Of a stretch of 4,607 nt of DNA, positions 4,303-4,607 are shown piece by piece. Below the pieces are notes generated by a model. That model was not told the origin of the DNA, did no database searches, and saw only the letters and a list, made by a program, of their open reading frames with translations. Within the stretch, counting starts at the first letter, position 1. Each line of letters starts with the position of its first letter. This DNA comes from a virus (taxonomy: Duplodnaviria > Heunggongvirae > Uroviricota > Caudoviricetes): the IMG/VR virus record IMGVR_UViG_3300028453_000030; one strand, written 5' to 3'. Position numbers and translations under genes: made by a program.

Positions 4303-4480
4303 TCAACTGATACTGATACCGGCTGTTGATTTCTTCATCACGACAACAAGAAGGTCGCTGATACTGGTCGTTGGCGTCCAGTTATTAGCACCATATGAAG
4401 AAACATTGAAAGTCAGGGTGACATGACCGTGTCCGGCAGGCATATCAATGACGGATGAAAATACCCTGCTGACATCCGTC
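4303..4480 (-). pseudogene. J: 3' fragment of the host-specificity / central tail fibre gene J (last ~58 codons), truncated at its 5' side by the IS insertion
   Basis: Minus-strand translation of 4306-4479 is [58 protein letters not shown], with TGA at 4305-4303. Lambda J ends ...VFSRIVDMPAGRGNVILTFTLTSTRHSADIPPYTFASDVQVMVIKKQALGISVV (recalled), giving the same VxDMPAG.G.V.LTF ... SD..V.V.KK...GIS pattern. The frame runs straight into the IS terminal repeat at 4481. The internal ATG at 4443 has no RBS. Confidence 0.7.
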
Positions 4481-4607
4481 TGTAGTGGTCAAGTAATATT
4501 GGCCACGGTTTTACAGTAAAAACGGTATCTGTTCTCTGATTCTTCCGGCGTCAACCCACCGTTGTAATGGTGAGGCCTGACGCTATTGTAATAATTCAGG
4601 ATATAAC
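4481..4607 (-). mobile_element. right end of an IS3-family insertion sequence (IS911-like terminal inverted repeat); the element continues beyond the window
   Basis: Plus 4481-4508 is TGTAGTGGTCAAGTAATATTGGCCACGG, with the TG terminus and the TGnAGTGGTCAA-N7-TGGCCAC architecture that I recall for the IS911 IRL (TGAAGTGGTCAACAAAAACTGGCCACC). The transposase reading frame ends inside this repeat. An outward-facing TTGACC sits in the terminal repeat. Confidence 0.6.
4489..4607 (-). CDS. C-terminal end of a DDE transposase (IS3-family OrfB-like), 5'-partial at the window edge
   Basis: Minus-strand translation is ...[38 protein letters not shown], with TGA at 4491-4489. The YN..RPH...G.TPxE motif is the characteristic C-terminal signature after the DDE catalytic core of IS3/IS481-type transposases. 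Confidence 0.6.

Follow-up and report, generated by a model that had tools for sequence, protein, structure and literature searches.

An IS3-family element end interrupts the 3′ part of tail gene J in a lambdoid prophage of Escherichia coli

The described systems closest to the locus analysed here are the insertion sequences ISEc31 and IS911, the gpJ protein of phage lambda and the DLP12 prophage of E. coli K-12. ISEc31 is catalogued and is a routine entry in E. coli genome surveys (NCBI annotation, MobileElementFinder-based). The element in our window is likewise present in multiple copies in E. coli, and its OrfAB protein is 96% identical over 301 aa to a protein annotated as an ISEc31-family transposase. 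With IS911 it shares the −1 slip between orfA and orfB at A AAA AAG, a 3-bp target duplication and its size (1258 vs ~1250 bp), but its OrfA and OrfB proteins differ from those of IS911, showing that it is not IS911 itself. In IS911, an outward-directed −35 box lies in IRR and a −10 box in IRL, and abutting the ends in the transposon circle creates a strong transient promoter (PMC9330008).

On the phage side, an uninterrupted 1132-aa relative of the J protein studied here aligns with lambda gpJ (PDB 8iyk, 8xcj) over residues 1-1131, and the two have the same order of domains, with PF12421 last. The sequence of the C-terminal domain differs between lambda and this relative, and the window holds only the last 58 codons of the gene. 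Because of this difference in the C-terminal domain, the receptor is not assignable from lambda. DLP12 of K-12 shows the same neighbourhood as the window prophage, namely a tail-fibre-assembly remnant followed by appY, ompT, envY and nfrA, but it lacks the J(3′)-stf segment and the further fibre genes that the window prophage keeps. On contigs that carry the same stf gene as the window, the opposite flank holds appY, ompT, envY, a ybcH-like gene, nfrA and nfrB, and the appY-ompT-envY-nfrA neighbourhood is what we take to be the K-12 DLP12 locus.

Lambdoid remnants of K-12 are reportedly damaged by insertion sequences, as in the cryptic prophage DLP12 and in lomR::IS5 of Rac. We found IS3-family, IS1, IS2 and IS30 copies in the same tail module of other genomes. 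The element, J, stf and the locus are all already known, and damage to prophage tail genes by insertion sequences is common. The cut through prophage J described below is ordinary prophage decay, and its significance outside annotation is small.

By "the window" we mean the whole stretch of 4,607 nucleotides that was analysed. All of its genes lie on the minus strand. Starting from the high-coordinate end, a transposase gene contributes its 3′ end (4605-4489) and is followed by a remnant of J (4480-4303). Downstream of this remnant the first gene is stf (4244-1848), separated from it by a 58-nt spacer. Beyond stf follow a 93-aa open reading frame, a fibre protein of 346 aa that carries a Peptidase_S74 chaperone domain, and a 97-aa open reading frame. 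The features on which the argument turns are as follows.

4481-4607, minus strand: right (transposase-3′, IRR) end of an IS3-family element, ISEc31-type; the window stops within the element
4489-4605, minus strand: last 38 codons and TGA stop of OrfB/OrfAB; the translation is the C-terminus of the 392-aa OrfAB of copy L002
4481-4506, no strand assigned: terminal inverted repeat IRR, TGTAGTGGTCAAGTAATATTGGCCAC, from comparison of the IS ends and the published IS911 IRR oligonucleotide
4487-4492, minus strand: outward TTGACC, read directly and found at the same position in the IS911 IRR
4478-4480, no strand assigned: GTC; after a simple insertion this triplet should recur beyond the element, as suggested by the AAG duplication of copy L002
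4303-4480, minus strand: J 3′ remnant, T1075-S1132 and stop, 100% identical to an intact gpJ (L001, 5404-5581)
4265-4284, minus strand: terminator-like hairpin, GGGCGCCAGAAATGGCGCCT then TTTTTTATTT, from a terminator scan, in the interval from the stop codon of J to the beginning of stf
1848-4244, minus strand: side tail fibre gene stf, 798 aa (Pfam PF08400 phage_tail_N, 222.9 bits)

The reading that we develop is that an IS3 element of IS911-like organisation very probably sits in the 3′ part of J in a prophage at the DLP12 locus, with the tip function of J lost.

The element end and the break in J

The 127 nt at 4481-4607 matched 4601 places in 2390 E. coli records (E=3e-59) and showed 100% identity to one end of a 1258-bp element, the transposase-3′ (IRR) end. 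The element matched by this segment is carried by 2136 of the 5426 complete E. coli genomes, on chromosomes as well as on plasmids. All 589 records in the class with at least 99% identity to 4481-4607 were annotated 'IS3 family transposase', while a further 1719 records fell into the 90-95% identity class. Since the window variant sits in the former class, with so many records in the latter, it may be an isoform of ISEc31 rather than its type copy.

A complete copy of the element is present in E. coli strain FDAARGOS_497 (L002, positions 2501-3758, 1258 bp). Its 5′ start, TGTAGTGGTCAAG..., is the same as the IS end in the window, its 3′ end reads ...GTGCCACTACA, and AAG stands on either flank, representing a 3-bp duplication. 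The element opens with TGTAGTGGTCAAGTAATATTGGCCAC and closes with an imperfect inverted copy, ...GTGGCCAAATTTACTGTGCCACTACA. When IRR (TGTAGTGGTCAAG...) was compared with IRL (TGTAGTGGCACAG...), 21 of 26 positions matched, giving an imperfect repeat with TG...CA ends.

In the FDAARGOS_497 copy, OrfA (103 aa) and OrfB are encoded by overlapping reading frames, and a slip at A AAA AAG joins the two into a 392-aa fusion; in the identical copies, and thus outside the window, the AAAAAAG motif lies in the frame of orfA, at IS position 333. The 392-aa OrfAB is a verbatim entry in public databases, where it is annotated 'programmed frameshift', and carries the domains PF00665 rve (DDE) and PF01527 HTH_Tnp_1. 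It scored 361.9 bits against the NCBIfam model NF033516 'IS3 family transposase' (cut-off 160), a score that belongs to the reconstructed 392-aa product, of which the window contributes the last 38 codons, identical in sequence. With a DDE transposase, a −1 frameshift between orfA and orfB and TG...CA ends, the element in the window is a member of the IS3 family. The designation ISEc31-type comes from a protein annotated as 'IS3-like element ISEc31 family transposase', which is 96% identical to OrfAB over 301 aa and falls into the same 90% cluster.

A first-pass annotation of this DNA had placed an IS3-family end at 4481, exactly where a J-like reading frame breaks off, and had put the transposase stop inside the terminal repeat. 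Each of these points held. The identity to annotated IS3 copies extends over 127/127 nt, with hits in 2390 E. coli records, and the stop codon TGA at 4491-4489 (minus strand) occupies IS positions 9-11, within the 26-bp terminal repeat. Consistent with this position, the RefSeq coding sequence in the FDAARGOS_497 copy ends 8 nt from the IS tip, inside the element. On the J side, alignment to intact J genes ends at 4480, and these genes diverge completely from the window past that point, so that no J gene continues through 4481.

The J remnant itself is well defined. At least 17 complete genomes have intact gpJ/stf loci that are identical to the window at 581/581 positions over 3900-4480, and in all of them a whole 1132-aa gpJ stands directly before stf. 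This identity stops precisely at 4480/4481, past which the intact J genes read GCGGGTTGCTGAAAG... and the window reads TGTAGTGGTCAAG.... The matches to the element and to J at this junction are exact and far above chance level. What is left of the 1132-aa J is a coding part at 4303-4479, comprising 58 codons and the stop codon (4303-4305). The 58-aa fragment scored 60.5 bits against Pfam PF12421, the C-terminal receptor-binding domain (cut-off 26.2), and covers profile positions 78-135 of 135, which is the distal half of the domain; in the intact protein PF12421 spans residues 1010-1132. The predicted domain limits therefore place the break, at J codon 1074/1075, in the middle of the receptor-binding domain.

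Because the cut lies in the middle of this domain, J is probably inactivated, and its domain architecture suggests that no functional J is produced from this locus. This would apply in either case, whether the element arrived by simple insertion or marks a deletion. The first-pass annotation had gone on to call the prophage probably tail-defective. The loss of J function that this implies agrees with the split receptor-binding domain, but the phenotype is better put as adsorption-defective, since it is the receptor-binding domain that is lost. For judgements of infectivity, a split receptor-binding domain is sufficient ground to expect no J-mediated adsorption. For annotation, the 3′ J fragment is to be recorded as a pseudogene remnant, the 127-nt tail as an ISEc31-type end and the contig end as a repeat-induced break.

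Two further observations concern J and its reading frame. In GCA_000711355.1 (L008, 2893-6374) J is present as open reading frames of 307, 779 and 46 aa without any insertion sequence, an independent pseudogenisation of J by point mutation or frameshift. In the window, the transposase and the J remnant share a frame (4303-4605, minus strand), an agreement with a one-in-three chance, and only the transposase TGA and three codons (PLQ) stand between them. This one minus-strand frame, from the transposase through the J remnant, closes in ...STAGISIS*. Read-through of the stop codon would yield a fusion of the transposase to the J tail, and we saw no sign that it is used.

Origin of the junction

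In the mechanism that we propose, a 1258-bp ISEc31-type IS3 copy would have entered the 3′ part of J in a lambdoid prophage at the DLP12 locus of E. coli. The element is oriented like J and stf, and its right end adjoins J codon 1074/1075, which separates the last 58 residues from the rest of J. Any particles made would then lack a functional tip attachment protein and would presumably be unable to bind their receptor. We hold with moderate confidence that the most likely origin of this arrangement is a simple copy-out/paste-in insertion, in which case the 5′ 95% of J would lie on the far side of the element.

Such an insertion makes specific predictions for the far side. Judging from the AAG duplication of the FDAARGOS_497 copy, GTC at 4478-4480 would be found again there, and in the sense strand of J the sequence would run ...CAGCAACCCGCGAC and then enter the left IS end, TGTAGTGGCACAG. 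The left junction would thus consist of ...GCAACCCGCGAC joined directly to TGTAGTGGCACAG, with a 3-bp GAC repeat, or in its longer form, again in the sense strand of J and with GAC repeated, of '...TTTCAGCAACCCGCGAC' + 'TGTAGTGGCACAGTAAATTTGG'. The truncated J would be expected to end in ...QQPAT-VVAQ* and to be 1079 aa long.

Exact-pattern scans of viral, metagenome and representative-genome collections for this left junction, allowing a spacer of 0-6 nt, returned nothing, and these negatives have low power, as drafts break at the element and few E. coli drafts are in the scanned collections. The complete E. coli genomes contained neither this junction nor the right-hand one. At the protein level, a 15-billion-protein collection contained neither J1-1075 followed by VVAQ nor the variant with a 4-bp duplication (both on the L001 allele), nor the contig-end partial J products of 1073-1075 aa (L001 allele). 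The negative searches for J fusions are uninformative, because the compared J alleles differ at 23-153 residues. A search for a sibling genome with an empty site gave, as best complete-genome matches to 1-4480, sequences of 98-99% identity, none of which joins this stf module to this J end. The same locus with an intact J is found in L032, which is 97-98.8% identical to the window.

The main alternative is that the element marks the joint of a deletion or rearrangement, such as an inversion, in which the 5′ part of J and perhaps other tail genes were lost. We regard this as a real but clearly less probable origin. An argument for it comes from E. coli strain SCU-172, in which an identical element (100% over 916+344 nt) joins a 3′ fragment of J to gpT. 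Most of J is gone there, as are H, M, L, K and I, and the element is flanked by non-matching triplets, CTT and GAT. This copy (L024, 8080-11400, Qin locus) is split by an IS30 at 915/916, and the J 3′ fragment next to it is 840 nt long; here the tail genes from H to J have been deleted, with the IS at the joint. The element is therefore known with a target duplication, AAG/AAG in the FDAARGOS_497 copy, and without one, in SCU-172. That the expected left junction was not found as a contig, as a protein or as a pattern would also fit a deletion, but these searches are weak for the reason that contigs break at the element and few E. coli drafts were scanned. In addition, most IS copies are simple insertions, of which the FDAARGOS_497 copy with its AAG duplication is an example, and simple insertion into J remains the origin that we prefer.

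We also considered whether J codon 1074/1075 is a preferred site of insertion or breakage in this prophage J family, which would mean recurrent, site-directed inactivation of the receptor-binding domain, not a one-off hit. A contig-end look-up with the 58-aa fragment identified 14 public contigs that start within 2 nt of the junction (L016-L023, L026-L031), and about nine of the 14 carry a slightly different J allele and no IS bases and come from other prophage contexts. Control look-ups placed one and four codons further in found three contigs each. The resulting threefold excess is one of small numbers, and the design of the look-up finds only contigs that start at the junction codon. In complete genomes the other J allele lies within intact J genes. 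Overall, we think it improbable that this codon is a preferred site. A general mosaic boundary in J at the insertion point was rejected as a cause of the recurrent contig starts, since 2460 of 2475 records span 397 nt across the site; the identity of the two alleles over more than 100 nt upstream also speaks against it.

Transcription at the element end

The terminal repeat carries an outward-facing TTGACC, as the first-pass annotation had pointed out. On the minus strand the hexamer occupies 4492-4487; it begins 6 nt away from the end of the IS and is directed toward the J remnant and stf. Comparison of the IRR of the element with that of IS911 (TGAAGTGGTCAACAAAAACTGGCCACC; PMC2909936, Table 1) showed 27 of 36 matching positions, with TTGACC co-located in the two. 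Abutting both ends of the element over 3 bp brings CACAGT of IRL to 17 nt downstream of TTGACC. On this analysis, TTGACC is best read as the predicted −35 half of the element's own circle-junction promoter, of the IS911 type.

We also considered whether the IS end supplies a −35 element to a hybrid promoter at this junction, and this was not supported. Such a promoter would pair TTGACC with a −10 box in the J remnant and drive stf and the downstream fibre genes in the lysogen. TTGACC does face outward at 6 nt from the tip, and −35 boxes of this kind are known in IS3-family ends (PMC9330008). However, the hexamers in the J flank at 16, 17 and 18 nt from TTGACC are AGCAGG, GCAGGG and CAGGGT, so that no −10 partner is present at these spacings, and a promoter scan of 4100-4607 on both strands detected no promoter-like site. 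Moreover, a strong terminator-like hairpin at 4284-4265 separates the junction from stf. We rejected the hybrid promoter on these grounds and consider it very unlikely. In IS3-family ends, the outward −35 box is a conserved component of the element's own transposition circuit, and it is not to be taken for a promoter of neighbouring genes unless a −10 partner exists.

The element had also been expected to be polar on stf and the downstream fibre genes. A consensus terminator scan of the IS on both strands found no terminator-like site, and an intrinsic terminator within the element was accordingly rejected as a basis for polarity. The interval between J and stf does contain a terminator-like structure, an 8-bp, GC-rich hairpin at 4284-4265 followed on the sense strand by the U-tract TTTTTTATTT. 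The RNA fold of 4265-4284 has a free energy of −21.9 kcal/mol (z=−4.3 vs shuffles), and hairpin and U-tract are unchanged in uninterrupted relatives. Lambdoid phages transcribe their late operon with a Q-modified, terminator-resistant polymerase (PMC7171158). Since the J-stf hairpin is native, late transcription into stf already depends on Q-modified read-through. With no terminators in the element and a native terminator between J and stf, the IS is not a convincing transcription block, and the case for polarity is weak. Some Rho-dependent polarity from the element may nevertheless occur.

The junction across assemblies and the surrounding prophage

We looked up the 798-aa stf protein, the 346-aa fibre protein and the 58-aa and 46-aa J remnants in public assemblies. 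All contigs found to encode the exact 798-aa stf end at the element or within it, and these exact-protein look-ups returned no contig that runs across it, all public contigs of the lineage stopping in or at the IS. Two contigs with the same stf extend into the element for 141 nt (L004) and 148 nt (L039). A third, L003, contains IS positions 58-1258 without a mismatch (1201 nt), adjoining the same J remnant, and L005 and L006 start at window position 4479, 1 nt into the J remnant. At least five independent assemblies (L003, L004, L039, L005 and L006) therefore have the junction or stop right at it. The IS/J junction was present in none of the 5426 complete E. coli genomes searched, and an exact-pattern scan of viral, metagenome and species-representative genome collections for the right junction was likewise negative. 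Absent from the complete genomes and present in a few draft assemblies, the insertion is a lineage marker.

The window stops 127 nt into the element because short-read assemblies cannot resolve a multi-copy element, and this length corresponds to the k-mer overhang usually left where a short-read contig ends in a repeat. Contigs typically end inside multi-copy repeats, and the window does so after exactly 127 nt; the element and the J remnant might thus have been joined merely by repeat mis-assembly, but we regard such an artefact as extremely improbable, because at least five independent assemblies have the junction in common. Independent assemblies contain it with 141, 148 and 1201 nt of the element (L004, L039 and L003), and a de Bruijn contig crosses a junction only given spanning reads. 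That 4481-4607 is native J sequence, with no insertion sequence present, is refuted by the full divergence of intact J genes past 4480 and by the identity of these 127 nt to copies of the IS that lie at unrelated places on chromosomes and plasmids, and nothing was found in its support.

The contig that extends furthest into the element, L003 (GCA_018092685.1 contig 38), has its position 1 at 57 nt before the left tip of the IS. As it runs through 1201 nt of the element, most of the IS seems to be single-copy there, with only the left-terminal segment repeated or interrupted.

The prophage around the junction is itself composite. The segment 3900-4480 is 100% identical to one set of prophages (e.g. 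L001), while 65-4262 is 98.5-99% identical to another, and no complete genome joins both parts. The window has no lom gene between J and stf, which are direct neighbours; L007 and L024 differ in this respect. Within stf, positions 3276-3710 (minus strand) form a tandem repeat with a 189-nt (63-aa) unit, present in 2.3 copies with an 85% match and with sub-periods of 21 and 42 nt, which encodes an Ala/Ser/Thr/Lys-rich ...KTSETNAK... segment of the tail fibre. The stf proteins of relatives range from 673 to 798 aa, probably reflecting differences in repeat copy number. Finally, a stretch at about 65-164 (minus strand) is homologous to a tail fibre assembly pseudogene in RefSeq that lacks its N-terminus (L001, 1593-1703; L007, 2981-3100; L024, 2737-2847). 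As this assembly-protein remnant recurs at different prophage loci, it travels with the fibre module.
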